From Schmidtea polychroa (taxonomy: Eukaryota), in contig CM097885.1 in the NCBI GenBank assembly GCA_044892525.1, positions 30,506,001 through 30,570,000 of the forward strand: a DNA stretch of 64,000 nt. The letters run 5' to 3'. This document shows positions 1 to 64,000 of this stretch, in pieces (the first letter of the stretch is position 1; each line of letters begins with the position of its first letter). Made by a program: the position numbers and the translations under genes. Below the pieces are notes generated by a model. The model was given only the letters and a program-made list of their open reading frames with translations, did no database searches and had not been told where the DNA came from.

Positions 1-2828
1 TCTACAATAAAAATAATTATCATAAAATTCCAAAAGAGACTGATAACTAATGATAACATCTAATAAACCAGTAAATTCATTTAAATAATTGGTATATCCT
101 AGTGAATTCTCCAATTTCTCATTTCCTCCCAAATATATCAATATGTAAAGATTGGTATTGTAATGATAAATACTTGTTAAAGATCATATATTCCCCTCAG
201 ACTAATAAGATTGCTTAAACTCCCCTTTAAATGACTATAATTCTAACTTTAATTCCTATTATCATACATTTTTCACTATTGATAAAACCAGTTATAATTA
301 AATTTTTGTTAATCACTGTAAATTTTTGTAAATCACTGTACTTGAAATTTAAAATCTAAAATAAAATATAACTGACTAGGTCCCATTGAAAGATTAAATT
401 TATCCATTCAATAAAATATATTTCTTCAAATGGTCAACTTTTGTCGTTGTCCGTCTAAATAAAGATAAAAATAAATTAAAGTTGATATCAATCCCAATTA
501 TCTGTAAAGATTTCATTGTCAAAACCAAGTAAATCGATCATTATCCCTACTTAATAAAACATTGTTCTAAAATAATTTACTATGCATTAATCACAACCTA
601 ATAAAACGATATAATTATTATTGATTCATAACTGACTAATGTATTGCAATTTCCTTAAAAAACATTGATATTTTACCAACATCACCCTTAAAAAATCATA
701 TATTCCCATCGAAACCCTTCCCTCATTAAAAGCAACCGACTATATCTCCCTTACAATAATATATTCCCATCTTAACCCATCTCACATTAAATCTAACCGA
801 CTATATCCCCTTAAAAGATCATATTTTCCCCATCTTAACCGATCTCTCATTAAATCTAACCAACAATATCCCATCTTAACCGATCTCTCATTAAATCTAA
901 CCGACTATATCCCTTTAAAAATCATATATTCCCATCTTAACCCATCCCTCATTAAATTTAACCGACAATATCCTATCTTATCCGATCTCTCAGCAAATAT
1001 TTCTACCCTTTTAAACATCTATCCGATTATATCCCTTATTTTCCCTAAAGATTTCACCCGCTTGAGCCCTTTAATATATATCAATCCTCTTAAAATCCTC
1101 AGAGAACTTCAAAAATATGACTTTTAATTAATTGTTATAGAACCAGACAAATAATAAGAGCCCATTAAAAGATCAAAATTCACTAAATTTTCTACAAATA
1201 TTTACCATCAAATACTGGAGATGAAATATATTGTTTGATCATAATTCTTCATCGATTCAGCCAATCATTTTCAAGCAAACTAAATTTCAGTATATTCTAC
1301 AATCATTTTCATGTAAATTTAAAGTTAACTGGTTTCTTAGCTTATGTTTTTTAAAGTTCATCAACGAGTAAATTATTGAAAAAATTATTTAGTCAAATAT
1401 ATTACAAAGTTATCATCAAAAATCACTTAATTATTAACCTAATTGTCAATGAAATTAATTTTTATTTAAAAACTATTCAATAAAATACCACTAATTATCA
1501 AGAAATTAACTAAATTTATCACCATTAAAACTTTTAATCAGTCAACATGAAATTCTTAGAAAATTATTCAATATCCTCATCAAAATTTATCCTATCACTT
1601 GATTATTGTACAAACTTTAATTATTAACCTCATTAAAATAAATTTTTATTTAAAATTAAAAATACATCCAATTATCAAGAAATTAATTAAATTTATCTTA
1701 GAACTAACTTTAAATTATTAAATATTCATTCAATAAACATGAAATTTGCAAAAATGTTAGAAATACACAAAAATAATAGAAATTTACAAAAATAATAGAA
1801 ATTTACAAAAATCAAAGAAATTCACAAAAATGATAAAAATTCATGAAATGATGGAAATCTACAAAAAACGATAAAAATTCACAAAAAATTACGGAAATTC
1901 ATGAAAATAATGGAAATTCACAAAATTCATAAAAATTCACAAAAATGATAGAAATTCACAAGAATGATAAAAATCCACAAAAAATTCATAAAAATTCACA
2001 AAAATTATAGAAATTTACTTGAATATTTACTAAAACCATCAACTCTAAAAATTATCAATACCTTAAACATCAAATTTGCCTAAATAATCATTCAAATAAA
2101 AGTATTAAAAGTACCCTTGCGACATGTTGAATGTGAGTAGTACCCTTGTGAGCAATACCCATAGGGGGACAGAATATTTTGTCGGATAAACTCAGAGTAT
2201 ATATTAATTAACTCATTCTTCATTGAATTAGTCAAATTATCATAAATTTCGATAAAAATTCTAAAGTGGTAAGCAATGTAAAGAGAAATATTCTTTAAAC
2301 TTTGATAAAATTAACATTGAAGGTGGTAAGAATCATTAAAGTGAGGAAATTATTCATTACTCGATTCAAATGGGTGAAAATAATTGGTAGAATAATTCAT
2401 TAATGGAGGTAAATAATGAGAAGTGGCATAGATAAGAAGAAGGTTGATAAAAATGTAAATATATTAATTGAATTTATTTAAAATTATTTCATAAAATTCA
2501 TAAATTTAATAAAAAAAACTTTTAAAACAAATATTTGTGGGGAATAATTAATCAAAATCGGGGGGATATTAGTGATTAATTAATGGAAAATCGGGAATCG
2601 GGGAATATAAGTGAATAATTAATGGAAATTCTAGGGAATACAAATGATTAAATAGTGGAAATCGGGGGAATATAGGAGATTAAATAGTGGGGTATTGAGA
2701 ATCGGTGGAATATAAGTGAGAAGGATATGTAATTTAAACTATTTTATTACGTAACAAGCCGCGACTAGTTTATTACACAACAAGCCGTGACTAGTTTATT
2801 ACATAACAAGCTGTGAATAGTATTTTAT
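1..2828. repeat. Left arm of giant inverted repeat (continues off the left edge of the window)
   Basis: Reverse complement of 3524-6351 (position n pairs with 6352-n). I noticed only two mismatches, at about 108 and 1592. Confidence 0.97.
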
Positions 2829-3523
2829 AAGACATATATTTGAGTATTAACTTATTTTGATTGAAGTATCACATTTAATATTGTGATGATTGTTTTCTAA
2901 ATCGAAATATTTAGTGTAAAATAGTAAATTTAATAATAAATAGCTACAATATTAAAGGTCTTTTTTTAAAAAAATATTTACTTTCTATTACCTAATTCCA
3001 TCATTAAGTTTAGAAAGTCTATATCTGTTCAAAATTCAATTTCTTATTCACATTTTCTAATAAAACTTATATTTTTAAATTTAGTGTAAAGAATTTAATT
3101 TTAATTGTATTTTATAAGTCATTTATTTGAATATTTATCTTATTTTTATTGAAAGGAGTAATATAATTCATATTATGATATTCGTTTCGAAATATTTAGT
3201 GTAGAATCGTAAATTTAATAATATATAGCTATTATTGCAAGTACTTATACAACAAAAACTTTTTTATTTCTAATGTTTTATTCCATAAATAAGTTTAAAA
3301 GTATATAACTGGTAATGAATTAATTTCTTATTTAAATTTATTTAAAAAAGCTTTACTTATAAAATTTATATTTTCGAAGACTTATATTTGAATATTAACT
3401 TATATTGATTGAAAAGGGTAATTGATTTAGAAATTAATTAGTGTAAATCAAAACATTTAAATTATTAAGGTATTAAAGTACCTATTCAAAAATTAAAAAA
3501 AAAAGACCTAATCAATAATTTCA

Positions 3524-6351
3524 ATAAAATACTATTCACAGCTTGTTATGTAATAAACTAGTCACGGCTTGTTGTGTAATAAACTAGTCGCGGCTTGTTA
3601 CGTAATAAAATAGTTTAAATTACATATCCTTCTCACTTATATTCCACCGATTCTCAATACCCCACTATTTAATCTCCTATATTCCCCCGATTTCCACTAT
3701 TTAATCATTTGTATTCCCTAGAATTTCCATTAATTATTCACTTATATTCCCCGATTCCCGATTTTCCATTAATTAATCACTAATATCCCCCCGATTTTGA
3801 TTAATTATTCCCCACAAATATTTGTTTTAAAAGTTTTTTTTATTAAATTTATGAATTTTATGAAATAATTTTAAATAAATTCAATTAATATATTTACATT
3901 TTTATCAACCTTCTTCTTATCTATGCCACTTCTCATTATTTACCTCCATTAATGAATTATTCTACCAATTATTTTCACCCATTTGAATCGAGTAATGAAT
4001 AATTTCCTCACTTTAATGATTCTTACCACCTTCAATGTTAATTTTATCAAAGTTTAAAGAATATTTCTCTTTACATTGCTTACCACTTTAGAATTTTTAT
4101 CGAAATTTATGATAATTTGACTAATTCAATGAAGAATGAGTTAATTAATATATACTCTGAGTTTATCCGACAAAATATTCTGTCCCCCTATGGGTATTGC
4201 TCACAAGGGTACTACTCACATTCAACATGTCGCAAGGGTACTTTTAATACTTTTATTTGAATGATTATTTAGGCAAATTTGATGTTTAAGGTATTGATAA
4301 TTTTTAGAGTTGATGGTTTTAGTAAATATTCAAGTAAATTTCTATAATTTTTGTGAATTTTTATGAATTTTTTGTGGATTTTTATCATTCTTGTGAATTT
4401 CTATCATTTTTGTGAATTTTTATGAATTTTGTGAATTTCCATTATTTTCATGAATTTCCGTAATTTTTTGTGAATTTTTATCGTTTTTTGTAGATTTCCA
4501 TCATTTCATGAATTTTTATCATTTTTGTGAATTTCTTTGATTTTTGTAAATTTCTATTATTTTTGTAAATTTCTATTATTTTTGTGTATTTCTAACATTT
4601 TTGCAAATTTCATGTTTATTGAATGAATATTTAATAATTTAAAGTTAGTTCTAAGATAAATTTAATTAATTTCTTGATAATTGGATGTATTTTTAATTTT
4701 AAATAAAAATTTATTTTAATGAGGTTAATAATTAAAGTTTGTACAATAATCAAGTGATATGATAAATTTTGATGAGGATATTGAATAATTTTCTAAGAAT
4801 TTCATGTTGACTGATTAAAAGTTTTAATGGTGATAAATTTAGTTAATTTCTTGATAATTAGTGGTATTTTATTGAATAGTTTTTAAATAAAAATTAATTT
4901 CATTGACAATTAGGTTAATAATTAAGTGATTTTTGATGATAACTTTGTAATATATTTGACTAAATAATTTTTTCAATAATTTACTCGTTGATGAACTTTA
5001 AAAAACATAAGCTAAGAAACCAGTTAACTTTAAATTTACATGAAAATGATTGTAGAATATACTGAAATTTAGTTTGCTTGAAAATGATTGGCTGAATCGA
5101 TGAAGAATTATGATCAAACAATATATTTCATCTCCAGTATTTGATGGTAAATATTTGTAGAAAATTTAGTGAATTTTGATCTTTTAATGGGCTCTTATTA
5201 TTTGTCTGGTTCTATAACAATTAATTAAAAGTCATATTTTTGAAGTTCTCTGAGGATTTTAAGAGGATTGATATATATTAAAGGGCTCAAGCGGGTGAAA
5301 TCTTTAGGGAAAATAAGGGATATAATCGGATAGATGTTTAAAAGGGTAGAAATATTTGCTGAGAGATCGGATAAGATAGGATATTGTCGGTTAAATTTAA
5401 TGAGGGATGGGTTAAGATGGGAATATATGATTTTTAAAGGGATATAGTCGGTTAGATTTAATGAGAGATCGGTTAAGATGGGATATTGTTGGTTAGATTT
5501 AATGAGAGATCGGTTAAGATGGGGAAAATATGATCTTTTAAGGGGATATAGTCGGTTAGATTTAATGTGAGATGGGTTAAGATGGGAATATATTATTGTA
5601 AGGGAGATATAGTCGGTTGCTTTTAATGAGGGAAGGGTTTCGATGGGAATATATGATTTTTTAAGGGTGATGTTGGTAAAATATCAATGTTTTTTAAGGA
5701 AATTGCAATACATTAGTCAGTTATGAATCAATAATAATTATATCGTTTTATTAGGTTGTGATTAATGCATAGTAAATTATTTTAGAACAATGTTTTATTA
5801 AGTAGGGATAATGATCGATTTACTTGGTTTTGACAATGAAATCTTTACAGATAATTGGGATTGATATCAACTTTAATTTATTTTTATCTTTATTTAGACG
5901 GACAACGACAAAAGTTGACCATTTGAAGAAATATATTTTATTGAATGGATAAATTTAATCTTTCAATGGGACCTAGTCAGTTATATTTTATTTTAGATTT
6001 TAAATTTCAAGTACAGTGATTTACAAAAATTTACAGTGATTAACAAAAATTTAATTATAACTGGTTTTATCAATAGTGAAAAATGTATGATAATAGGAAT
6101 TAAAGTTAGAATTATAGTCATTTAAAGGGGAGTTTAAGCAATCTTATTAGTCTGAGGGGAATATATGATCTTTAACAAGTATTTATCATTACAATACCAA
6201 TCTTTACATATTGATATATTTGGGAGGAAATGAGAAATTGGAGTATTCACTAGGATATACCAATTATTTAAATGAATTTACTGGTTTATTAGATGTTATC
6301 ATTAGTTATCAGTCTCTTTTGGAATTTTATGATAATTATTTTTATTGTAGA
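3524..6351. repeat. Right arm of giant inverted repeat
   Basis: For example 6292-6351 is the reverse complement of 1-60, and 3524-3540 of 2812-2828. The spacer 2829-3523 is 695 bp. Confidence 0.97.
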
Positions 6352-14716: not shown

Positions 14717-44544
<29,828 letters not shown>

Positions 44545-46612: not shown

Positions 46613-48221
46613 AACTACAATTCTAACACAACTAAATATAAATAAAAAGAATGCTGATCAATTCATAAGTTAAAATCTTTATTATAAATATTACAAATCA
46701 ATAGCACAAGATAGTCTAACGTACAGATATTATAAATATTGTGTGCTTTTAAGTAAAGTGTATATATAAATTTCACTTTATTTTATTTTTAACATTGACT
46801 TCCGGTTTATTATTATTTTTTATATATAAATTATGAAGCATATACCTTTCATTATAAATGGTCAAATACGTATTGGGGACATAAAGGACATAAAGAGTTT
46901 TAGGAAAGGAATAAAGATAAATTATAAATAGTATTTAATAATTACTATTTCTAGAATAGATTAAATATAAACAATATAAATAGGTATCAAAATTTGAGAA
47001 AAAGGAGGAATAATTACAGATACAATAAACGAATATTAAGGACGTAAAAGAAGAAAGCGGACAATAATTTTAAGGATGCTCACAATAAACAACTACAGTT
47101 AATTTTCAATTTAAGTCAGATTGAGCATACATCACAAGTTATCAAGCCCACTGTATTAGTTAATTATCACCGTGGAATAATTATCGATTGAAAGCTCTTA
47201 AATACAATTGGAATTTTCTCAAGTTTAACATAGATAACCATTTTCGGGTTCATCTATATTTAATTCATCAAGGATAAATAATTAGTTAGTTTATTATTAT
47301 TAAATATATTTATTTTTAAACATAGAGAGGGTCAGTCATCAGCAAACATTTTTTGTAGTTGTTTTGATTTATATAAACAAACTATTAACCAATTCTCTGG
47401 GTTAATAGTATCGCGCTTAAATATCGGGAAATCCCTCTTCTTTATCCTCAGCACCTATATCGGGCTGTTAGCGCATTTAGGGCCAGCCTTGATACTTAGA
47501 AGTAATCTTCAGGGCGGTTTGAATAACCGTTATCTTAACTTTGAGCGCAGCCATTGTTGTTATTTGTAATTTAATTAGTTTGAATAAATTTTTGTATAAA
47601 TCATATTGTTATTTATTTATTCAATATTCACGCGCAACCTATTAATATCAATGGAGTCTAATTTAATCTGTGTTAGATCGAGAACAACCCATCGAACCTA
47701 ACATACGCATCAATTCATATACATATAATAGAAGATTAAGATGTAAATGTACCTAATTCAGCTATTTTGACAGTATGTCTCGCAATATCGTTTTAAATGA
47801 ACATGATAAGCTAAACATTCGTGTTTACTATTATTTTTAGCAAATTTTCTGCACATTATCATAATAGGGCTTAAGGCCTAGTGTAGCAAATTTGCACAAA
47901 ATTAAAATAATAAAACTAAATGCTTTTGGTTGCCTCATCACGTTATACAATTATTAATTATAATAAAAGTCAATAAAATAAACACGTTTTAAAATCAAAG
48001 GATTTTTTAAAGAACATACATATATTTACATATTCCGATACAAATTTTCTCTCCTGATACTAACTGATTAATACAAGCTCATCAGTAAGAACATGTAGCA
48101 AATCTAAGGTTACCAGATATTTAGATAGGCAAAGCGGGACAACTTTGATGGAGGGGTTATCAACAAACATTTTCATATAGAATAAAAATAATATGGTAAT
48201 ATTTTTTGATTTTTAACATAA

Positions 48222-49872
48222 TGTTGGGCTGAAAACGAGAACTGAGAGTTTGTTTTAATCGATCGAAAATACCTAACACAAAAACCGCAAAGTTGAAAAA
48301 AATTTATGACCAAGGTTTAATTTAAAATAAATAAAATAAACTACATCACACATTAAGAATCAATAAACCCCGTATAATAGAATAAAGAGATAAATAAATT
48401 TAACAGAAAATTCAACACTTAAAAATTTAAATAGAAAAATAATAAAATATAAAATGGAATTAGTTGAAAATTATTTAAACAATATAAAAATTAAATCGTC
48501 AAAAATAATAAAATTAATTAGCATTATGTAAATTGTAAAGTTTATAGAATTAAATGGTTATTTAACTTATTAAATTTAAAGAATAAAAATGTTTAAATTA
48601 ATAAAAATTAATATAACTCAAATTAGTTAAATTATAAAATTTGTAAAATTAAAATTAATAAAAATTAAATAAGAAATTAATTAAATTTATGAAATTAAAA
48701 CAAATAAATAATTACACACATTCATGCATGTGTGCAAAATCAATTCAATAATTCTCGCACTCTGATTGGATAGAGTACGCATTCAAAATCAGTATAAATA
48801 CTGATCACAAATTCAATTGAAAAACTCTCTTTTTTCAACATAGCCACTTAATTTGCAGAACTCTCAGTTTCGATTTTATGCCAACGTGGATGTGGTAATT
48901 TATTTGTTATTGTTTTCTGTAATTTTTATGAAGTATTTTAATTAATAAATTTAATTAATAAATGTCTCGGTTCAATTTTCTTTAGTGATCCTTTTTAATG
49001 GTTTAAATTCATTTATTCTAATTCATAGTCTCATTGAATTCAATTATATTATTTGTTGATTGTGTCGATGGTCTGGGCTGGGGAAAAGTTTGTGGACGGG
49101 CGGCACTACGTGCTGTTGTTCGGCAGATATTTCGCCGGTTGAGTCCATCGAGTTAGAGGACAGTGATAGTGATAGGAATGATTAGGGAGTGTAATGTCAT
49201 TTTAGGCCGTTTAGAATTTTATTTAGATTTAGACAATGTAGGTGGCTTAGTCACCTTTATGTTTTATAGACATAAGTGAGTTAGGAGTAAAGATGGAATA
49301 GTTGAGACCAGTTGAAGATGGATAAAGTTAGATTTATGTAATTTTTCCGACAGCTCATGATTTGAAACACAGGCAGATCCCTGCTCAAAATCTTTGAAGA
49401 ACAATTTAAATATTATGGCAAGTGTGGATTAACTTGAAAATAAGGGCCAATCCCTGCGCAAATTTTTCAAAGGATAATTTAAATATTGTAGGAAGTGTAG
49501 AATAATAATTACTAGCTGGGAAATAAGGACGGATCCCTGCACAAAATTTTATAAGAGAACAATTAGAAATACCCGTAATTGAGGACCAACAACGATCCAA
49601 AAATAGCCTATATAGTGAATAAGGACGTAAGACCTTCTATCGGCAGTCTAGAACCCGAAAAGAAAATCCAATGGGGAGTAGTTTTAGTAATAGAGCTCAC
49701 CTGCTCATTGTTTTTTCACCTTTGTGTACAGTACCAACATGGTCGTCGCCATGGGTACACAAATGGTTTAAATTGCAATAGTTATGGAGGTGCTTAGGAA
49801 AGAGTCGAACGGTTATGATTACCCCTAACGTATTTTAAATTGTAAAAAGGACACACCCCTAAGTAACCAACA
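48222..49872 (+). repeat. 5' LTR
   Basis: Direct repeat of 61949-63599; one mismatch noticed (48463 G vs 62190 T). Confidence 0.98.
48762..48805 (+). promoter_or_regulatory. Putative LTR promoter: inverted CCAAT box plus TATA box
   Basis: CTGATTGG about 30 bp upstream of TATAAATA; AATAAA signals at about 48943-48962. Confidence 0.55.
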
Positions 49873-49879
49873 TGATTTT

Positions 49880-49897
49880 TGGGGGCTCAGCCGGGAT
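49880..49897 (+). other. Primer binding site, tRNA-Pro-like
   Basis: TGGGGGCTCAGCCGGGAT versus the canonical tRNA-Pro PBS TGGGGGCTCGTCCGGGAT (16/18); starts 7 nt after the LTR. Confidence 0.85.
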
Positions 49898-52071
49898 TCC
49901 AATCAAAAAATCTGACAAAAATATACAAGTGAAAGTGACGAAATATTTACAACAAAATAAATACGATTCTAATTGATTAGATAAATTGACATTTTCGTAT
50001 TTAATTAATATCAAGATCATACCACAATTCAATCAATTATTTCAGCACTTTTATATCAATAACTTTATAATTTACTAAAAGCCAGGATGATTTCATTATT
50101 TATAACTCACAGGTTCACTATATCACATTATTATAATTGACTTTATATGCATCAAGAAAATCGTAGTTAAAAATGAATAGAAAATAAACTTGAAATACAG
50201 AGCTATTATTGCCTTTATGTATCCAATTTTATTCAACTGCATGCACATTACAATCAATGAATTTGTACACTTTAGACAATTCTATGAATGACTTTGTTAG
50301 CATATTTTTAGTGAGATATTGATGAATAATAATGCTAAATAAACCTCGGAGAACTTATAAAATCACTAAACTTATAGGGTAACTAAAACATTATTTGATA
50401 AACCAGAAAAGTGTCGATTTGCAAGAAACTCAAACGTGCACGCTGTGCTTGTTTCGGTTGGCTTGCGTGTGGATGTGATTTATGTCTGTGTTGTGCTTAC
50501 ATTTGCTGACAAGAATTATCACATTTATTTGTTGAGCAGCCGGTTAAACAGGTTTAAACTTATTCGATAAATCATGTCATCGTCCACTGACAAATTGCTG
50601 GTAAAAAATAATCGACCAAAAAGAAAAAATATAGCAACCAGAACACTTGAGAAAATGCCAACACAATGTTGTGATAGAACATGTTTGAGTAGTTGCCTGA
50701 AAATTGTGTACATGATGATTTGTTTTGCAGAGCAGTGTTGAAATGTTTTTTTTGTTTGAACTTGCATATTTGAGTCGAAATTAGCCTTATGTCAATGAAT
50801 GGAGTTGAATTGGTTGTGAAGTATCTGGAATCGGTATAAACGTGTTTATAATTCCTGGGCGGCTGTGAGAGTTGATTGTAACTGTGCTTCCAGCGATAGC
50901 TTGTTGGTATTTGACGACTGGTGTGGTGGTGCATAGTCAATGATTTTTTTTTCTCAGTGCTTTTAAGTCTACCGCTGGCGTTGTTGAATGATTCAAAATC
51001 AAGATTAAAGACTGAAAAAATTTGCCGACAACACCTGCTGTCTGTTGTCGGTTTGAGGTGATATCTGAAAAATGGGTATGTGTGTGTAGTAATAAAATAT
51101 TCCGGATTTTACTACTCAAGCTCTACGACAGTCTAGATTGAATATATAATTGTATAGTGTGTGTGCCGGCGGTATGGCATGGCATGTGTGCATGCGTGTT
51201 CTGTACAATGCGTGTGCAATTGGTTTTCTACGTTCATGAAAATCAGCCAATCAGAAACGAGATGTTTTACAGTTATTTGTTTTTCGTTTTTAGATTTCAC
51301 TTCTTTTGGATTTGGATTGTTGCTGTAATGTTCAGATGAAATTGAAATGATATGAGATTGACAGAACGAAAATGGAATACGTTTTTATTGATTTTACCAT
51401 GTCTATCAATTGGAATAATAATTCGAACATTTACTTTTGAAAATGATGCTGGAAATTTGATTAGTTCTTCGATTCATTGCAATTTCTCTCGGTTCGTTTC
51501 GTTGCTTTTGTCGATGTCGAGTAAAACTTTGAGCGACTTTTCAGTGCAGTATAGTTGGAATGGTTATATATATTTTTTATTGATTTTATGGACTTTACTA
51601 ATTAAATCAAGTATGTTTTATAAGTATTTTAAAATTCAGTTTTTAATAAAATTATGTATGGCTTTCTATTTTTGATTTAATTGGTTAAAATAAAACAGAA
51701 AATTGTCAAATTTGCATGTATGAAAATGATTTTTAATTATGTTACTATGGCATTTTGTACTTGTATACAAATTTATATGCACTTAAATAATTATTGTTAG
51801 TCAGTAATGGGATAATCAATGTATTAATAAATCATGTCCACTGGTCAGAACCATCAATTTATTTGGTGTTATTAATCTCAGGATAGTGGTAATTTTAAAA
51901 TTTTTTATATATGCGTAAAATATTCCATTATAAATTCGTGTGTTGTATAAGTAGTGTTGATTTATGCGTCTTAGTACTATTGACTTGACTCTATATGTTG
52001 GTCTGCCTTGTCTGTAATAAAATATCACAAGTGTCCTAAACAACTGTAGTGGAATTTCTATTCTAAAAATG

Positions 52072-52197
52072 TTAGTAGATTTTATTTATGGTGCCGATTA
52101 TTGTATTCCGTTGGATTCCGAGAATGCGGCCTGATTCGTGATAATCATGGCCATCCGCCATGGATTTGATGATTCTTTCGTTGTCAGCAATGGTCAT
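52072..52197 (-). other. 41-aa antisense micro-ORF with a helix-turn-helix signature
   Basis: MTIADNERIIKSMADGHDYHESGRILGIQRNTIIGTINKIY*. Confidence 0.5.
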
Positions 52198-55100
52198 TCC
52201 ATATAGATTTTATAAAATGTCTGAAGTTTAAATGAAAAGCTTACACATTTGGCTATGAATTTCTCGAAACGAAATAGTCGATTCTGATGAGACTACAGAC
52301 ATCCTCGTACATTTTTTTTTGTTGTTGTTAATTTTAAATTGGAAAATTTCAGCTGATTAAATGCCCTTGTTGAATCAATATCCTGTTGCATGTGTCTTGT
52401 GAGCCGTGTTTGTTTGTGCTTGTTTATAATATATATATTATTAACATCGATTTTGTTTCCTATTTTTGTATAATATAATTGCCAATTTAATTTCACATTG
52501 CTAATTCATACGCACATTTATTATAGGTAAGCTAAGGTTTATATTATAAAAAACCCAAATCAGTGCCCATTCGATGGTGATCGGCTGCCGGTCGGTGTAA
52601 TTATTTACAAATTATGATGATAGTAAAGACGAAAGGGCGGGTGAAATCATACACCCGGAGAGCATGTAGATACACCGGTAAGACAAGACACTTGCAACTA
52701 TAAGTTTTTACAAATATATTTCGGTTGGTGCGCATCTTGGCAATGATTTTAATTGACACGCTTCTATACATCGAGTGCTCGTGATTGGAGCTTGATCGAA
52801 TGGTGCATTATTGACTCCTATAAAATCATGATATTGTGTTACAGGCGGTTGTTTGCAAATAAATCTTAGGCGTAATCAAAAATCAATTATCGCGTGTATG
52901 GAATTAATAATCTGTTTCGAGGAAATTGCTAGCAGTGCATTGAGGAATTTATTAGGAAATTATAAATTATACGGAGTAGCAAATCGTAATTAATTGGTTT
53001 CGACAAAATTACTCTATTTTGTAAGATAGACGGAATGTTCTTTGCTAAAAATGATTGGATACGCCCAGAACAAAAGAATAATGTATGAATATCGTTACAT
53101 CCGGATTTTAGTAAATTCAGGGTTTGACAATAGGATAAGTAAGCTAAGCTAATTTTATGAAAATAAATAAGTCTTCTCCTTGATAATTTGTCCTTGTTTG
53201 GTTGAATGGTTGAATGATGGGCCAGCAATTGGTTGAGGATTGGTTATGCAGGCTCTTGATAATATTTATGTCAATGAATTATTAAATGTTAATTGTTATT
53301 ACGTTGATTAGTGAATGGATAAACCGAAGGAATGATAGCGGCTTTAGAAGGGGAACTTTTTGAGAATATACTGATAAATGAATATGTAATGGTATGAATG
53401 ATTATATGCAAATGATATATAAGAATGTATGGATTAGGGGGTTTAGGAAAAAGCAAGCTATATATGATTCTGGTATTGAGTTGTCGATACATACAGTGTA
53501 TGATAAGGACTATTTAAACCAATTATACCCTACAGGTAATACCTTCTACGCATACCAACCCAAGGGTAGAGTACCCAAGGATGTTAAATGCATCGGTAAA
53601 ATGGAAAGACCAAACCATAAAAACGATTGAATAAAAATCCAAATGAAAAATACGATAAAACTCGACAGATAACAAAGTACCAAACGATAAATAAAGCAAA
53701 TGATAACCATGTCTTAGCTTATGCAAATGTGAATCTGAGACGAACAACATTATAGATAAAGAGATGAGTTTACCAGACGAAACCGAGCGAGTCAACAGAT
53801 TCTACTGAAAGTAAAAGAAAGTAAAGACAAGAAAAGACATCGAAACATCACGAATAGAAATGAACAAAATGAACAAAAGCGTTAAGTAAAAGAACAAAAA
53901 CAAGAACTAAACTTGCCGGTAACTCGAAAAATAAATCTGAACCAAAGACAATCGAGAATAACTGCGAAAAAAATAAAATCACGGTACAAAAATAGAGCAA
54001 AAACAAATCGAAATAAAATCTTCGTGACAAAGGCACGAGAACTAAGTTAAAAGGCAGTGAAAAACTTTGCAAAATAGGCGAACATCACAGACATCAAGGA
54101 TACGTAGAAAATGAATTTTAAAATTTATGTAGAACGGCTCAGGAAGTTAACAAAATAAATACAGAAATTAATGAAAATAAATACACAAGACACCGGAATA
54201 ACGTGGTGGATATCGACAAATGATCCAGCGAAAGAAACCAAGAAGCCCAAGGTTAGCCAAAGTAATATGAATATACAAGACAGTTATACGTACGATGCTC
54301 ATATTAATAACCGGAACGAACTATGAAAAATTATCCAACGTCAACGATAGAGAATGGGAAACAATTAGAACCAGACGGGTGAAATATACAGTAAATGAAA
54401 GAGTACAGAACACTAAACTAAGACCAGTGGGGAGAGATCTAGAAAGTATCACGAATTACGAACCCACATACATAGAAAGGGTTATGACTATATATAGTGT
54501 GAACAATGAATATATAAAGGTATATGATTATATAAAAATATATGTATATATATCAGCGCGGTATAATTAGTATATAACTTCGGGAAGTAAGATGAAATAA
54601 AATTCAGATAAAAGATTAGGAATCAATGTAGGCGAATTAATAGGATAAAACGGATCACAATGGAAATCAATCCCAATACCACCACAGGAAAAGTATGGAA
54701 GCAGAAAAGCGCCATACTATCGCAAATAACATGCAAGGAATCTCATGGAGGAACAATCTAATCGAAACTTTGAACAATGAATTTGTTCGTGAAAGAATAA
54801 TCAAGGACCAGAGAAGAAAAATTGAACTAAGTGGAAGAGAAATAGAACAAATCAAATGATAAAGCCAAATGCAAGTAAATGAACTAATAGGAATAGCTGG
54901 GGAAATCAAGGAGAGAAAGAAATGATCAGAATGTAACGGAGAATATCAGACGTAAAAAGGAAACGGGAAAAAGAAAATGCAGTAAGCTGAAGATGAAGTA
55001 CAAATAGTTATAACAAATCCAGCATAGTATTCATTGAAAATTGTTATAAGATGAGGAGTAAAATATACCGAGATGGAGGTGGAATGAGTAGAAGAACATT

Positions 55101-56425
55101 TGTACCGGTGGTTTCTGTTGCGTAAAGGAGAAAACAACGAACTATTAGCATGGTCATAACATTGAAAAGAGACGGTAATGGCAGAACTGAGTGCCAAAAA
55201 GAGGACTAATTGTATATAAATAATTGTATATATCGGTGTATACACCCCAACCAAAATGATATATAATAAAAGTAGAGGACCGATCACCATAAACAAAGAT
55301 AAAATAATGCGAAAAATCAAAACATCAAAATCTACGCTTAGTTAAGAGTAAGGAAAATCAATCAGAGAAATGGACGTTTGGCAAATATTGTAGAGAGGAC
55401 ACGAGAACAAAATAGTGAGAACCGAGAGAACACAAGATAATAAATAAATCAAATAATGAATATCGGGGACGACATTTGGCGAAGATGCGGAGGAAAATGA
55501 GAACAAACTACAAACTAAGATAACAACAAACGGGAGACCAATATGAAAGTCAAAATGGACATGAGCAATAATAGGAACAATCGGGAAAAATTATACAAAA
55601 ACATGATTGACAGAAAATGAAGAGCGCACATATATCAAAATAGAATGTGAATAAATAAACACGATAAAAATGACAAGGAAAACACAAAACGAAATGAACA
55701 AACAGGAAACAATAAGTAACAAATTCACAGAAAGAAAGCAAGGTCAAAGACATTTGAATGAAAAATCAAAATTACGAGAAACAACAAATATAAAATGAAA
55801 CGCGATACAATATAATAGAACAAAAGTGAAAGCTTAACATCACGACACGGAAAATAAGAATAACAAGAGACACTCACAAAAATGAGACCAATTAGAAACA
55901 TTGAACAAAAGTTTTAGTTATGGAAAACGAACATACTGCCTACTTTTACTATGGAGCAAAAAGTTACAATAATGAAAAACGAACGGACTGTCTACTTTTA
56001 TTACGAAGCAAAAAGTTACAATCGTGGGAATTTCAATGATAAATTTGAATAAATTCAGAAATGATAGAAACAATAATATCAATCACTCCAGGAACAGCTA
56101 GGGAGAAATGCGTACAGATGTAGATATCCAGATATAGGTGGATATATTTATGAATATATGTTTATGAATAAGGGTATATGTATAAGTATATGCGTGTATA
56201 TGTAGACATAGATAAACAATTAAATGAGATAATGAATATAAATGACCAATCAAAGTTACGCGCCAAAAGTAAAATAGCAAATAGATGCGGAAATAAGTAA
56301 AAATAAAAAATACAGGGAGTGGAACAACGAGGCCCATAAACAGAAAAACAACAAACAAATTTTGAAAACGTAAAATATACGAAATGAGAAACATTATGAC
56401 GGGGAAATCAGTGAGAGGTCACATA

Positions 56426-56427
<2 letters not shown>

Positions 56428-56467
<40 letters not shown>
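56428..56467 (+). repeat. A40 homopolymer
   Basis: Direct reading. Confidence 0.95.
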
Positions 56468-56470
<3 letters not shown>

Positions 56471-57164
56471 AGCTGAGGAAAATATACAAATACGGAAGCG
56501 ATAAATTACAAAATTAAGCAGGGATGTTTCGTAAATAAACCATTAACGAATAGAAGGGTAACGAATAAAATGGATAAACTAATATTAACGAGTAATGCGA
56601 GAGGGATCTGCCTGAGGAAATAGTGAGCATATTAACGAGAAACAAGTCAACCAAAGCGGTAAGAGTAAAAGCGATAGCAATAAGACGTTAACTAGACAAG
56701 AGACGTGGATATATTTAGAATAATGAAGAAGGACCAAGAGTAATCGAGATAAGTAGATTAAGAGCACGACGTAAAAATGAGAATAAAGTATTATGAAAAT
56801 TGAGAGCAAATGAATAAGGAAAATTTTTCTGTTAGGATTTAGGACATCCACAACCTATGAGCTACGCTCAGCGTAGTACGGATAAGACCAGGAAAGTACC
56901 AACTGTCCTGACGAAAGATGTGGAACAGGGCCCATCGCATATACTGGAACATCTCTGCGTGTGACTGATCACCACACGATCGGAGATCGACCAGTGCGAG
57001 TGTTTCGCATCCAGAGTCAGGAGAGTGGGGAAAACCTGGAAGAGTAGTAAAAAGAAGCATGCAGGAGAAATAAAAGGAAGACCAAGTAACTGGAAAAAGA
57101 CAAAGCGAAGTAAAGAGAAACAATTAGAGCTTAAAGACTAAATTCATAAGATAACCAGTAGACA

Positions 57165-57494
57165 AATAATAGATGCGAATAATAGATGCGAATAATAGAT
57201 GCGAATAATAGATGCGAATAATAGATGCGAATAATAGATGCGAATAATAGATGCGAATAATAGATGCGAATAATAGATGCGAATAATAGATGCGAATAAT
57301 AGATGCGAATAATAGATGCGAATAATAGATGCGAATAATAGATGCGAATAATAGATGCGAATAATAGATGCGAATAATAGATGCGAATAATAGATGCGAA
57401 TAATAGATGCGAATAATAGATGCGAATAATAGATGCGAATAATAGATGCGAATAATAGATGCGAATAATAGATGCGAATAATAGATGCGAATAA
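57165..57494. repeat. Perfect 13-bp minisatellite (AATAATAGATGCG) x25
   Basis: Direct reading. Confidence 0.97.
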
Positions 57495-58358
57495 GAGATA
57501 CGAATATAAATGAGAATAATGGCTACGAATAGGAACGGAAATAACAGACGTGAATATAGATGAGGTAAAAGGAAAGATAAACGAGAATATAGATGAGTAC
57601 CTAGAAAGAAACATAGACGGGAATATAAATGAGAATACGAAGTCATTGACAGATATATAACTGAAAATAAATAAGATCGTGAAGGAAAAAGACGAAAAAC
57701 GAATTGAAAATAGACAACCGTGTAGGAGAATAGATGAGAATATAGAATGAATAATGGAGAACCGAGTCAAGAATAATAAATAAGTCTAAAAATTGGCAAC
57801 GATAATGGAAAAAGAGAGATATAAAGGACGACCAATAAGGTAAACGGAGGAAATTATAAAAATCGGAAACAAACATGAACAGAATAAAGACAACATCAAT
57901 GAAGAAAACTAAGATAGAAACAAGAATACAAGTAATGTAAGTCAATAGATAGAGATAAGCCAAGGAAAAAAAGACAGTTAAAGTAGAGAAAACTATAGAA
58001 ACGAAGAAAAGGAGTGTGAATTAAATAAGAAGGATCGAAAAAATTACGTAGGAATTTGAGAACCAATGTGTAAACAAAACTAACGACGAAATGAATATTA
58101 AGATATGCCGGCACCCAAAGAAACCAAAGTAAAAATATTGCAATTGCACTATATAATATATATATTACAATTTATAAATATAATAAACGATAGGGAGAAG
58201 TGATATTTTTCTATTCAGGTAAATCAATCAAACAAGCCAACAGCCAAGTATCAGCAACCAACTAGAAGTTATTGTCAAACAATTAAGCCAAGTTCAGAAA
58301 TATTGAACCAATAACAAAGCATACCAGATCAAAACAGTTAATAATAGAACCAAGTTTA

Positions 58359-60920
58359 TTGAAAGAAGAAGAATTAAAAGTTGCAAAGAAAGGAAGACGA
58401 ACTATTAAACCCACGCAAGCACAAGAAATCGAAAAGCAAAATCAAAAAGACATCTCAAAGACCAAAGGTCGATCCATAAAAGGAAGCAGTGAAAAGGATT
58501 TCGAAAACAATCGGCCAAGAAGCGTAATACGCGTATCAGAACCTCAGGAAGGAAAAACTCTATCTGAAAACAGAAATAATAAAAGTGACATAAACCTAAT
58601 AAAAGAAAACACAAACGGAAAAAGAATACAATTAAAGATGGTAGATACAACAGCCCAAATGGAAGCGATCAACAAGAGACTCAGTGAAATGGAGATACCC
58701 AATTTCCAGGGAAAATATAATGGCGAAAAATACGACGGAAAACCGAACAAACTATCAAACTTTATCCAACATTTTGAATCTTATTGCGATGCTCTAAAAT
58801 GGACAAACGAAATGATAGTGAGAAGACTCCCACTATATCTAGCAGATGACGCTTTTAATTGGTACTTCGGAATAAAAGAGTGTACAACCCCACTAAAAAC
58901 CTGGAAAGAAGTTAAGGAAGCTCTGATAAAAACATTTGGAGAAGCAAAAGATGCACAATACAAATTTCTAGAATTCTTCAATCGAGGACAAGCAGTGAAT
59001 GAATCAAATATATTGTACGCAAGCGCACTAAGACGTCTAGCCAAACCGCTATTTAGTGAAAAGGATATGGAAACACAACTAGTAACCCAATTTGTAAAAG
59101 GATTGCGACGAGATGACATTAAAGGTGTAGTAGGATGCAAAATATGCAAGACGCTGGACGAAGCAGTAGAGGCAGCGAATGTAAGCGAAATGTACACCAA
59201 AGTAACACAACCACCAAGTAGGAGGCACATCGCAGATAATCAACCCCAACACCACAGACAGTGGAGTCATAACATCAATAATCAAAGAAACGATAATGAC
59301 AATGAAAGCAAGAGGTTGAATAATAGAAACATTGAAAAATTTTGTGATGACTGCAAGAGAAAAGGACACTGGCTCGATGAATGTCATGGACAAAGAAGAT
59401 GTTGGAATTGCGGTAAGAAAGGACATACCGCAGTGAGATGTGGAATATCTAAAAAATGTTTCTCGTGCGGACAAGGAGACCATCTAGCAGTTGCATGTAC
59501 GAATAAAAGAAACCAACAACGGAGTGACAATAGGGATACGTCAGCAAAGCAACTAGCTGAAATGCAAAATCAAATAACAATTCTCACAGGACTGTGCAGG
59601 AACATGATCGATTATCAGTTTCAAGCGGAAGGAAAACAACAATCAAGAATAAATGTATTACAATGTGTGGGAGGCACATTACAAATTGAAAATATCCGAA
59701 CAAAACAACAACGAGAGTGGAACACCTTACAGATCGCGGAAGCACGAGAAGCGGAAGAAAGATGGAGTAAACGAAAAGAACCTCAGGCAAGAAGAGAAGA
59801 AAAATATTGGAAAACGAGAAAGGAAGAACTTTTAAAATTGGATATAATGAGACTAACCAACAACGACAACCAGAGGGAAAAGATAAAAGGAATATGGGAA
59901 AGAGAACAAAAAAGAGTAATACAAATCAATATGATGAGAATGATAACGAGCAACGAAATAGATTTACAAAAAATTCCGGACTCAAGGATCGAAAGCGAAA
60001 TAATTGAAAAACTGGAACAGGTAATATTAGACCATCAAAACATCAAAACATTTGAGGACAATCAGAGAGATTATACCGGCATCGATAGTCAGGTTGGAAT
60101 TGCAGTAATCCCGGAAAAGCGCGAATCGAAGAATGGCGAAAATCACGAAAAACGAAATAATGAAAAAACGCAAGAAAAGTACCATGACATAAACACGTTA
60201 AAAATTGAAAGCGGGTGCGAACCAGATATCGAATGGGACGCGAGTACAAACAATTACTGGAACAAATACCAACCACAAGGACACAATGAGCGCTATCGGT
60301 TCTTCGATAAGACGTATGGGAATTGTCAGAAAAATGAGCACAGAAAAAATAAATATCGCCGCATAAAGAGGTGTTACGAATGTAAAAGAACTGGACATTT
60401 AGTCAATAACTGTCCGAATGGGACAAACCCAGTGAGAGATCAGTCACGAGAATACGTCACAGAACAGAACAATAAAAAATATGTCGAAAACAGAATTTAT
60501 CAGCCAGAAATAAGAAAACACCAATCTCCAATGCTAATAAAACAACAGTCGACAAATGTACAGAGACGGACAAATGACGTGAAGGAACAGGTGAAACCCA
60601 ACGCATACGAGGAATTGAGGAGACAATGTGTGGAACAGTGCAGGTTAATAATGGAACTAGTTGTAAAAGAAACGAGACAGGATGAATTGATAATGATATG
60701 GAGAAAGGTTGCAGAAAACAGAACAAGAGAAAATGAAGTACTCAAGACAACGATACTCCGACTAAAAGAAGAAGCAAGGTCAGCCGAATTAAGAATCAAT
60801 GAAATAACGAGTAATCAAGAAAAATGTAAAGATATGGCAGAAGAGACACAAATGATGACAGCCAAGGAAAAGCAGAAGGGTAGTCCAAAGGATGTAGTGG
60901 AAATTAACGTGGAAGTGTAG
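58359..60920 (+). CDS. gag: Extended Gag-like protein (capsid domain, 4 CCHC zinc knuckles, C-terminal coiled coil); first ATG at 58638
   Basis: KYDGKP..LSNFIQHFESYCDALKW...LPLYLADDAFNWY, RGQAVNES...YASALRRLA, QFVKGLR; CX2CX4HX4C at 59343, 59399, 59457 and 60372. Confidence 0.92.
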   Translation: MKEEELKVAKKGRRTIKPTQAQEIEKQNQKDISKTKGRSIKGSSEKDFENNRPRSVIRVSEPQEGKTLSENRNNKSDINLIKENTNGKRIQLKMVDTTAQMEAINKRLSEMEIPNFQGKYNGEKYDGKPNKLSNFIQHFESYCDALKWTNEMIVRRLPLYLADDAFNWYFGIKECTTPLKTWKEVKEALIKTFGEAKDAQYKFLEFFNRGQAVNESNILYASALRRLAKPLFSEKDMETQLVTQFVKGLRRDDIKGVVGCKICKTLDEAVEAANVSEMYTKVTQPPSRRHIADNQPQHHRQWSHNINNQRNDNDNESKRLNNRNIEKFCDDCKRKGHWLDECHGQRRCWNCGKKGHTAVRCGISKKCFSCGQGDHLAVACTNKRNQQRSDNRDTSAKQLAEMQNQITILTGLCRNMIDYQFQAEGKQQSRINVLQCVGGTLQIENIRTKQQREWNTLQIAEAREAEERWSKRKEPQARREEKYWKTRKEELLKLDIMRLTNNDNQREKIKGIWEREQKRVIQINMMRMITSNEIDLQKIPDSRIESEIIEKLEQVILDHQNIKTFEDNQRDYTGIDSQVGIAVIPEKRESKNGENHEKRNNEKTQEKYHDINTLKIESGCEPDIEWDASTNNYWNKYQPQGHNERYRFFDKTYGNCQKNEHRKNKYRRIKRCYECKRTGHLVNNCPNGTNPVRDQSREYVTEQNNKKYVENRIYQPEIRKHQSPMLIKQQSTNVQRRTNDVKEQVKPNAYEELRRQCVEQCRLIMELVVKETRQDELIMIWRKVAENRTRENEVLKTTILRLKEEARSAELRINEITSNQEKCKDMAEETQMMTAKEKQKGSPKDVVEINVEV

Positions 60921-61948
60921 ATGAAAATAGTAAAAAGGAAGTGAACATATGTAAAAATTGATGTATAAATAGCAAACTAAATGTACTAGATGTATAGGTA
61001 TAAATTGATGTATAATGTGGCAAAAGATCGATGTATAAATAGAAATGGATCAAGTAATCAGTTGGGAAAAATACAAAATTTGAACCCTTACAATGGTAAA
61101 GGAGAACAGAGGCTCAAATGAGAAGAAAGAATATAAATCCAGAAGAAAGATAAAGATGCAAACCTAGAAAGAATGAGTTAAACGAATATCTAAAAATAAT
61201 ACCTAATTTGGAACCCCTAAACAAAGAACGGTAAAAGATCCTGATAAATGAGACGAAAGTCACAGACCCAGTGACATTAGAAACTTAATCAAATCAAGCG
61301 AACTTAGACCAAAATCGAAAATAATTCAAGTTACCCACTAGAGGAAGAAAACCCCTTAATAAGAGCAATACCGTAAACAAAACCACCAAGAAAAACCAAA
61401 AGAAAAATCAATGTGTCAAATCACCCAGTTGAACAAAAGTTCCGAAAACCCTGGAGCAAGGTCCGTCAATACCATCAAATGATCCAGAAAATCAGAATCC
61501 CAACCTAAAAATCCAAAGAGAATATGGGAAAACAGTCAAACCCCGATAGAGAGAATCCTATGATCTTCAGTAAGTATTACGAGCTAATTATGAAAATCAA
61601 CAACAGGAATCAAACATGCCTACAAAACCCAGCCGAAAGATTGAAAACCGAACCCAGAAAAGATAAGAAACAACCAACTGAAGAATTGATCCAGAAATAA
61701 AACTTTTGCATATGACTCGTACTTGAGTTTGGACACTGTATCAGTATGTATGTGTATTATGACCAGTCACTGTATGTGACAACTGCTTGAATTTGAGCTT
61801 AGACCTTTTTCTGCTAATTGAATTCTAACGTGTCTTAAACTATTATAGTATGTTTATAGGTTAATGGGAATGTAATAGACTATGACCTGGGAAATTCGTA
61901 TGTCTAACAGAATTGCGGGACGCAATTTTAACGGGTCCCGGAGTGATT

Positions 61949-63599
61949 TGTTGGGCTGAAAACGAGAACTGAGAGTTTGTTTTAATCGATCGAAAATACC
62001 TAACACAAAAACCGCAAAGTTGAAAAAAATTTATGACCAAGGTTTAATTTAAAATAAATAAAATAAACTACATCACACATTAAGAATCAATAAACCCCGT
62101 ATAATAGAATAAAGAGATAAATAAATTTAACAGAAAATTCAACACTTAAAAATTTAAATAGAAAAATAATAAAATATAAAATGGAATTATTTGAAAATTA
62201 TTTAAACAATATAAAAATTAAATCGTCAAAAATAATAAAATTAATTAGCATTATGTAAATTGTAAAGTTTATAGAATTAAATGGTTATTTAACTTATTAA
62301 ATTTAAAGAATAAAAATGTTTAAATTAATAAAAATTAATATAACTCAAATTAGTTAAATTATAAAATTTGTAAAATTAAAATTAATAAAAATTAAATAAG
62401 AAATTAATTAAATTTATGAAATTAAAACAAATAAATAATTACACACATTCATGCATGTGTGCAAAATCAATTCAATAATTCTCGCACTCTGATTGGATAG
62501 AGTACGCATTCAAAATCAGTATAAATACTGATCACAAATTCAATTGAAAAACTCTCTTTTTTCAACATAGCCACTTAATTTGCAGAACTCTCAGTTTCGA
62601 TTTTATGCCAACGTGGATGTGGTAATTTATTTGTTATTGTTTTCTGTAATTTTTATGAAGTATTTTAATTAATAAATTTAATTAATAAATGTCTCGGTTC
62701 AATTTTCTTTAGTGATCCTTTTTAATGGTTTAAATTCATTTATTCTAATTCATAGTCTCATTGAATTCAATTATATTATTTGTTGATTGTGTCGATGGTC
62801 TGGGCTGGGGAAAAGTTTGTGGACGGGCGGCACTACGTGCTGTTGTTCGGCAGATATTTCGCCGGTTGAGTCCATCGAGTTAGAGGACAGTGATAGTGAT
62901 AGGAATGATTAGGGAGTGTAATGTCATTTTAGGCCGTTTAGAATTTTATTTAGATTTAGACAATGTAGGTGGCTTAGTCACCTTTATGTTTTATAGACAT
63001 AAGTGAGTTAGGAGTAAAGATGGAATAGTTGAGACCAGTTGAAGATGGATAAAGTTAGATTTATGTAATTTTTCCGACAGCTCATGATTTGAAACACAGG
63101 CAGATCCCTGCTCAAAATCTTTGAAGAACAATTTAAATATTATGGCAAGTGTGGATTAACTTGAAAATAAGGGCCAATCCCTGCGCAAATTTTTCAAAGG
63201 ATAATTTAAATATTGTAGGAAGTGTAGAATAATAATTACTAGCTGGGAAATAAGGACGGATCCCTGCACAAAATTTTATAAGAGAACAATTAGAAATACC
63301 CGTAATTGAGGACCAACAACGATCCAAAAATAGCCTATATAGTGAATAAGGACGTAAGACCTTCTATCGGCAGTCTAGAACCCGAAAAGAAAATCCAATG
63401 GGGAGTAGTTTTAGTAATAGAGCTCACCTGCTCATTGTTTTTTCACCTTTGTGTACAGTACCAACATGGTCGTCGCCATGGGTACACAAATGGTTTAAAT
63501 TGCAATAGTTATGGAGGTGCTTAGGAAAGAGTCGAACGGTTATGATTACCCCTAACGTATTTTAAATTGTAAAAAGGACACACCCCTAAGTAACCAACA
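61949..63599 (+). repeat. 3' LTR
   Basis: Direct repeat of the 5' LTR at a constant offset of 13727. Confidence 0.98.
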
Positions 63600-64000
63600 A
63601 TAAGTACAATTTATATTTATAAAGTATTGTATAATATTTTATTCCTTGACATATTTTTTATTTGAGCGAATTTGTTTCAGTAGATTGTTGTCATTTTTTA
63701 AAATATTGTAAAAATCTTCACAAGAATTTGTCAAATTATATTTGACACTTAAAAATACTTTCAAAGTTTCAACACTTAATTTTGATTTCTCTGATGTCCA
63801 CGCTTAATTTAGTGTAGAGAAAACGCCTTCAGTCGCAGCGTTAGTTCCAGGTATTAGTTCCTCGAGTATTTTAAGCTAAGTTTAAGAAAATTTATGTATT
63901 TATGAAATATATAAATAAATTACTTACCTTAATTTTCTATGGTATGTAGCATATTTGTAATATTTATTTGTTTAATTAGCTTCCTAGCACACAGTACGAA

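Follow-up and report, generated by a model that had tools for sequence, protein, structure and literature searches.

How is a retroelement copied when it encodes Gag and no polymerase? This question is raised by a long terminal repeat (LTR) element in a 64,000-nucleotide stretch of the Schmidtea polychroa genome (GenBank assembly GCA_044892525.1, contig CM097885.1, positions 30,506,001 to 30,570,000 of the forward strand; hereafter the window, numbered from its first base). The element occupies positions 48222-63599 (15,378 bp). A preliminary description, made from the sequence alone, had taken it for a parasite that supplies its own Gag and borrows Pol from an autonomous gypsy family. The best explanation, with a probability of roughly 0.8, is that it belongs to a young, high-copy Gag-only LTR family that likely depends on the reverse transcriptase (RT) and integrase of Burro-type gypsy elements for its copying in trans, its own Gag likely favoring the packaging of its own RNA. 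The primer binding site (PBS) and LTR junctions shared with these elements and the selection on gag support the earlier proposal; that the Gag builds particles, and that Burro is the source of Pol, is what we infer from them.

Structure and Coding Content of the Element

The 5' LTR (48222-49872, 1651 bp, TG...CA) and the 3' LTR (61949-63599, 1651 bp), both in plus orientation, differ by exactly one mismatch (LTR position 242), and the target-site duplication (TSD) ATAA lies on both sides (48218-48221 and 63600-63603). The PBS starts 7 bases past the 5' LTR end (spacer and PBS, 49873-49898; PBS, 49880-49898; plus strand) and matches, over 19 bases, the 3' terminus of a host tRNA-Pro(TGG) gene with CCA added. 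The near-identical LTRs and the intact TSD and PBS had all been reported correctly. A reverse CCAAT-like motif at 48762 and a TATAAAT at 48793 in the 5' LTR are putative promoter motifs. No polypurine tract (PPT) was found ahead of the 3' LTR; a 17-base hairpin (61911-61927) and a non-purine motif occupy its site instead (61911-61948, plus strand). The reported absence of pol was confirmed by a six-frame Pfam scan of the internal region (12 pieces, stops read as X, E ≤ 1), which returned no protease, RT, RNase H, integrase, or env, and gave only Retrotrans_gag, zf-CCHC, and a sub-threshold DUF7692 match on a knuckle. Likewise, tblastn with 46 open frames of the partner loci detected only gag and a weak TRAF/MATH trace, and the ~1-kb non-coding 3' region (60921-61910, plus strand) lacked pol homology in both tblastn and the Pfam scan.

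The Gag frame (58287-60920, plus strand), identified by open reading frame, Pfam, and predicted fold, is the sole plus-strand frame of more than 110 codons inside the element. The single long frame of the preliminary description therefore stands, but its length of 853 codons holds only from a TTG at codon 25; the frame spans 877 codons from stop to stop, and 760 from the first ATG (58638, codon 118). A Ty3/gypsy-type capsid is followed by three adjacent CCHC knuckles that end near 59501, and the C-terminal half contains a fourth knuckle and resembles a diverged second copy of the nucleocapsid/knuckle region. Residues 134-408 are predicted to form a two-lobed helical capsid fold (mean pLDDT, 83.5), for which the top Foldseek matches were dArc1/2, PNMA2, and Arc (E = 3.5e-5 to 9e-4), with the Ty3 capsid at 2.1e-3. 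For residues 430-877, the best ESM Atlas value was 0.84, which is a lead only. Public protein relatives were unnamed MetaClust entries that are closer to Burro-type frames than to the Gag-only family, and the finding of no longer Gag-Pol relative among protein-database candidates of 1536-4385 aa is weak evidence.

Because 256 ATGs lie between the TATA-like motif of the LTR and the gag ATG, a spliced or internally started gag RNA is likely. A pyrimidine run ending in CAG (58200-58217), 70 bases ahead of the opening of the gag frame, is a candidate splice acceptor, and the Burro frame likewise runs ~180 codons ahead of its first Met. Two sets of contigs presumed to derive from RNA span the gag region and some of the leader; joints with GT..AG ends were not listed among these sets, and contigs reveal neither the level nor the strand nor the starts of transcripts.

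Copy Number, Insertion, and Age of the Family

The genome searched totals 781 Mb, and its contigs include four large ones. Exact searches returned 348 LTR-end/PBS junctions of the Gag-only family and 234 capsid 24-mer markers genome-wide, and reversed-pattern controls gave 0 matches. In a scored search with gag, the best 134 of 5896 matches showed 93-100% identity. All 10 whole copies taken from the gag matches read LTR, leader, gag, 1 kb, and LTR; the eight with parsed ends measured 13.7-16.1 kb and had distinct 4-bp TSDs and 0-3 LTR substitutions. A census was also made of the first 30 LTR-end/PBS junctions on chromosome 1 (C1), which left 28 after exclusion of the window and one known copy. 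Fourteen of these were gag-bearing, nine were capsid-less (one truncated), and five were interrupted or truncated. No pol was found between the LTRs of any of the 28, the two RT matches being in the flank or on the opposite strand. Of the 100 listed capsid sites on C1, 50 have a 3' junction 3.0-3.5 kb downstream by coordinates, and the others comprise 10 that were examined as copies and 40 that were fetched. The fetched sites included 30 normal copies, one with an insertion, and nine that were deleted, interrupted, or mutated at the 3' junction; none of the 40 contained pol inside the element, and four pol matches lay beyond the 3' LTR.

LTR pairs of the family differ by 0-7 substitutions per ~1400 bp, with one older copy at 14 in 1267, and a 4-bp TSD was present in 19 of 20 tested copies (the start of the remaining copy was not found). 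The copies are independent, recent insertions of a high-copy family, and the near-identical LTR pairs together with the individual TSDs bear out the recent mobility that had been proposed. Repeated copies of the same structure, with their own TSDs and no pol, exclude a single post-insertion deletion, an alternative that the preliminary description had itself named. At least two LTR subtypes exist, with a replaced segment at LTR position ~794-1145, and the shorter subtype carries a 126-138-bp piece with 78-82% identity to Burro LTRs.

Head-to-tail arrays of the family, with units ~13-13.7 kb apart, were seen at C1:77.26-77.32 Mb (five units ~13.55 kb apart), C2:48.93-48.95 Mb, and C3:4.36-4.39 Mb. 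Such a tandem array as the first would fit a spread of copies at the DNA level, by duplication or gene conversion, with gag retained as a host-domesticated gene. However, the flanks differ between copies and the TSDs are individual, so that the TSD census largely refutes this explanation, which is scarcely credible as an account of the family.

A Probable Burro-Type Partner

A pol-bearing gypsy family of the postulated kind, sharing the PBS and both LTR junctions, exists among Burro-type elements. The 19-base PBS occurs 603 times in the genome, and four RNase H matches lie ~12 kb behind a listed PBS. Fetched examples of the first Burro-type family are 30.5-31.1 kb long, with 4.2-kb LTRs, 4-bp TSDs, and 0-5 LTR substitutions per 1500 bp. 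Their single frame encodes gag, a Monjiviricetes-type fusion glycoprotein, protease, RT, RNase H, integrase, and ankyrins, and a RING/TRAF/MATH accessory gene follows downstream. The LTR end, spacer, and PBS (31-33 bases) are 97-100% identical between this family and the Gag-only family; the hairpin, non-purine motif, and LTR start (47-55 bases) are 94-96% identical, and ~5-6 bases are common at the LTR 3' end. Outside these junction signals, identity is 60-65%. Matching junctions of the first Burro type number 274, against 234 + 121 markers of the gag-bearing and capsid-less forms. In a second Burro-type family the PBS is identical, but the spacer differs and the 3' signal is more distant. 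Among the first 100 PBS sites on C1, 50 were assigned by motif to the Gag-only family, 11 to the first Burro type, and 12 to the second; the remaining 27, when opened, proved to be second-type Burro (24) and family or family-like elements (3).

In the gag tree, the family is a long-branch sister to both Burro types and is nested in neither (support 82/83, not starred). Given this branch and a capsid identity of 41-44%, the split between the family and Burro is old, with the enzyme-facing signals having stayed alike. The 30-31-kb, env-bearing Burro-type element is the likely helper, and its shared signals, equal TSD length, and co-activity point to mobilization in trans. A compact gypsy family with a 3334-aa frame was rejected as helper, as its capsid is 26-27% identical and the PBS is not shared. 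An autonomous sister that has the same gag and LTR but is rare or was not assembled would reduce the Burro signals to mere ancestry; the position of the family gag outside both Burro-type families would agree with this, as would the restriction of the gag search to the best 134 of 5896 scored candidates. Nevertheless, no such sister occurred at the 100 capsid sites or the first 100 PBS sites of C1, junctions that stay near-identical amid 60-65% identity elsewhere argue for continuing use of Burro enzymes, and the exchange of a 74-bp repeat (described below) is recent. A hidden sister is thus quite improbable.

tRNA-Pro(TGG) is the putative primer type for the Gag-only family and both Burro types. 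Genes for this tRNA form a tandem array with a 475-bp period at C1 ~130.90-130.95 Mb and beyond (L187), and a 20-base tRNA-Pro pattern has 1658 genome-wide matches, some of which are PBSs. Burro-type LTRs (L025:6097-6858 and others) contain a frame of 253-272 codons that has no Pfam match and is 35% identical between subfamilies.

A Capsid-Less Sister Form

A sister form lacks the counterpart of window positions 58618-59505, that is, the capsid and three knuckles. All 10 copies examined have the same deletion junction, which shows short microhomology, and 121 exact junctions were counted genome-wide. The form is young, with 0 differences in several LTR pairs and its own TSDs. A 13-bp tandem array that it has in common with the window element (57165-57531, plus strand, ~28 copies) is followed by the 74-bp leader repeat of Burro, whose unit is 1-2 bases from that of four of five Burro copies. 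The adjacent 550 bp of leader are 73-84% identical to Burro, against a spread of 76-94% within Burro itself. Burro leader sequence was present in all nine capsid-less census copies, and neither the window nor any of the 10 whole gag-bearing copies showed the 74-bp array. Template switching in shared particles would best account for this recent exchange with Burro, and the helper's repeat would let the sister form use helper Gag. One locus (L085) joins a 5' part of the sister form to a 3' part nearer the gag-bearing form. In a capsid-less copy at C1:168.46 Mb (L188-L189), the 74-bp array is strongly expanded and the internal region reaches 15.2 kb.

Selection on gag

Selection was examined in 51 gag copies (14 census copies, one of them the window's, and 37 of the 40 newly fetched; kappa 3.8), after three truncated new copies and two gapped census copies had been dropped. 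Singleton variants comprised 54 silent and 161 replacement changes, including six stops (omega 1.02), whereas variants in at least three copies comprised 69 silent and 107 replacement changes and no stops (omega 0.53, p = 4.7e-5); the two classes differ (Fisher p = 0.003). The constrained parts are the capsid (omega 0.41) and the last 157 codons (omega 0.43). Thus, gag is neutral after insertion and under purifying selection in the lineages that multiplied, as would be expected if a copy's own gag aids its multiplication. The neutral singletons and accumulating stops also argue against a domesticated host gene, since they fit selection during transposition and not on inserted copies. An apparent signal in frame +1 upstream of the ATG (pairwise dN/dS 0.19) was discarded as pseudo-replication; that frame has stops, and selection on codons 1-117 of the gag frame found no support in site counts.

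Several observations weigh against the explanation preferred here. Codons 331-720 are not significant alone, doubletons have an omega of 1.03, and a smaller first sample gave omega <1 in singletons and shared variants alike. The census of capsid sites covers C1 only (100 of 234), and the 11 first-type Burro PBS sites were assigned by junction motif, with four of them opened. LTR bodies barely align with Burro: just the 3' half exceeds shuffles, with local scores of 62-91 against shuffle maxima of 40-50. Capsid identity to either Burro type is only 41-44%, which is low for mixed capsids. Furthermore, because 121 capsid-less markers exist with LTR pairs down to 0 differences, Gag in cis is dispensable for movement in some lineages.

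The latter two points also favor an account in which Burro proteins alone package and copy the RNA, the family Gag being kept for RNA chaperoning or export, or for interference with Burro assembly that shifts Pol to the parasite. The C-terminal part, which is not capsid, is moreover as constrained as the capsid itself. On the other side, a fold that matches Arc/Ty3 capsids is confidently predicted for the capsid, all knuckles are retained, and the 74-bp array is absent from Gag-bearing copies while capsid-less copies carry the Burro leader, although this last contrast goes back to one event and is thus not independent. Packaging by Burro proteins alone is therefore considered unlikely, and a Gag that favors its own RNA is preferred.

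The Leader Between the PBS and gag

The ~8.4-kb leader is non-coding now, much as the preliminary description had it (~8.5 kb), but part of it is decayed coding and spacer DNA of Burro. This relic (54299-55448, plus strand), recognized by alignment and block shuffles, follows Burro order: the end of the polyprotein frame, the spacer, part of a MATH domain, and the end of the RING/TRAF/MATH gene. Stops and deletions interrupt it, its nucleotide identity to Burro is 61-70% (z of 15-37 against block shuffles), and the spacer match was seen again in each of the nine other family leaders tested. The position of a Burro 3' region before gag suggests that two elements in tandem, or recombined with each other, gave rise to the arrangement. 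Lenient blastn gave control matches down to E = 6e-15; weak leader and LTR matches were therefore ignored and the relic was retested by shuffles.

The first 1-1.7 kb past the PBS are exchangeable. The window version (49899-51228, plus strand) belongs to one of 14 sequence clusters among 40 copies, two of whose loci are the same copy, and many versions converge near 51229, where a segment common to most copies begins (51229-51538, plus strand; CCAAT-box-like motif at 51244-51255). The window version stood beside the family LTR end and PBS at 30 of 30 loci, and a second version beside family LTRs at 20 of 20. Capture from host genes was rejected on these grounds, with no host source found, and a derivation from Burro leaders was likewise rejected, no match being found and just 3-4 of the 14 versions lying slightly above shuffles. 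A further 1.4-kb segment (51825-53229, no strand assigned) is missing in several copies, and a portion of it matches a repeat at locus L190 in the opposite orientation. A transposase-like look at ~52.0-52.2 kb (minus strand), judged by eye, had no Pfam support. The leader also contains a 40-base poly(A) run (56428-56467, plus strand). At 51225-51770, the contigs presumed to derive from RNA pile up far above the rest of the window, although contigs cannot show level, and loose poly(A)-like contig ends lie near 51538 and 51662; this region may give rise to a short abundant transcript.

Other Features of the Window

Elsewhere in the window, positions 669-5683 form a foldback-like long inverted arrangement with mirrored tandem repeats (~300-2800 vs. 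3530-6050). Fragments of a hAT transposase dimerization domain occur at 28293-28748 and 35136-35561 (minus strand), and an exon-sized piece at 33562-33936 has a sub-threshold match to the ASF1 histone chaperone.

Comparison With Known Non-Autonomous Elements

The statement that Gag-only LTR elements are mainly from plants and much smaller is partly correct. It describes terminal-repeat elements with a gag gene (TR-GAGs), which are plant elements of <4 kb whose type family has a PPT and a 5-bp TSD, and no partner is reported for TR-GAG1 (PMC4350172); it overlooks large plant Gag-only partners such as Quinta and Sabrina, which are better known than was implied. The window element resembles a TR-GAG in its LTRs, PBS, TSD, single Gag frame with zinc knuckle, lack of protease, RT, RNase H, and integrase, and several young copies. 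It differs in size (family, 13.7-16.1 kb; window, 15,378 bp), in the 4-bp TSD, in the missing PPT, and in having an identifiable candidate partner.

In the pairs RLG_Quinta/RLG_Cereba of wheat centromeres and RLG_Sabrina/WHAM, the non-autonomous partner is described as having Gag and an unknown C-terminal domain and as lacking RT and integrase (PMC11302176). Quinta has its PBS, LTR ends, and 3' signal in common with an autonomous gypsy element that has one ORF, and was proposed to supply extra Gag; the gag genes of the pair are homologous in protein and hardly in DNA, with recombination around gag (PMC11302176). The Gag with an extra C-terminal part, the absence of RT and integrase, the homologous gag, and the recombination around it all recur here. 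Two of the three features that define the wheat pair are also found in the family and Burro (an identical PBS; LTR termini and 3' signal); the third, a strongly conserved second half of the LTR, is not. The frame, the predicted fold, and the selection signal would be compatible with an intact Gag supplied as proposed for Quinta. Differences include the animal host, the env-bearing 30-kb helper, the lack of a purine tract, the 8.4-kb leader with a decayed helper 3' region before gag, and the third, capsid-deleted tier. By size, the window element is thus no TR-GAG, and by analogy it would work like Quinta/Cereba.

Burro/GYPSM1 of Schmidtea mediterranea exceeds 30 kb, has an in-frame env with ankyrin and MATH/TRAF content, and encodes Retrotrans_gag with three CCHC knuckles (PMC6431247). 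The partner elements fit this description in size, env, ankyrin, and MATH/TRAF content, and the family Gag shows the same succession of Retrotrans_gag and three knuckles. In contrast, the window element is half as long and lacks env, pol, and intact accessory genes. The Burro section of PMC6431247 mentions no Gag-only derivative, and a Gag-only Burro dependant was not found in the portions covered of the literature searched (including PMC8532177, PMC11410931, PMC6466679, and PMC13524379); the supplement of Grohme et al. (2018) or Repbase could list the family. LARDs, VL30, ETn, and MaLR are described as large or abundant non-autonomous LTR elements that a related helper moves (PMC6431247, PMC6466679). 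The capsid-less sister form resembles LARDs and ETn, and the main form differs from them by its selected Gag. MaLRs carry a gag-like frame, and Drosophila HeT-A is a Gag-only non-LTR element.

Proposed Mechanism and Implications

Transcription would be driven from the LTR, and Gag would be made in cis from a spliced or internally started RNA. The family Gag may co-assemble with the Gag-Env-Pol polyprotein of Burro, or the RNA may be packaged beside it, so that Pol enters the particle. Reverse transcription would be primed by tRNA-Pro, the plus strand would be started at the shared non-purine motif, and Burro integrase would insert the copy with a 4-bp duplication. The family probably goes back to an old Burro-like lineage in which env-pol was lost, and it carries a decayed Burro 3' accessory region ahead of gag; in the derived form, capsid and knuckles are missing and the helper's 74-bp repeat is present.

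A wider reading, possible but doubtful, is a three-tier satellite system. Burro, expressed as one Gag-Env-Pol chain of 4,800 residues, would be short of free capsid; the family would supply surplus Gag, co-assemble, package its own RNA first, and perhaps ride enveloped particles between cells, and a capsid-deleted hyperparasite would have acquired the helper's 74-bp packaging repeat through template switching. The exchangeable segment after the PBS would then be an escape or tuning module.

More than 350 copies of ~14-15 kb would amount to roughly 5 Mb of the genome. Why retroelements without Pol keep Gag is a question that also concerns TR-GAG and Quinta of plants. In the S. polychroa family, a population signal can be read directly from hundreds of dated copies, a candidate helper has been named, and the capsid-less form, with its capsid lost and leader DNA of the helper gained, serves as a natural control; the host group is amenable to RNAi. 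The system makes testable the balance of Gag and Pol in single-polyprotein retroelements, the co-assembly of capsids that are 40% alike, and the site of the Burro packaging signal.

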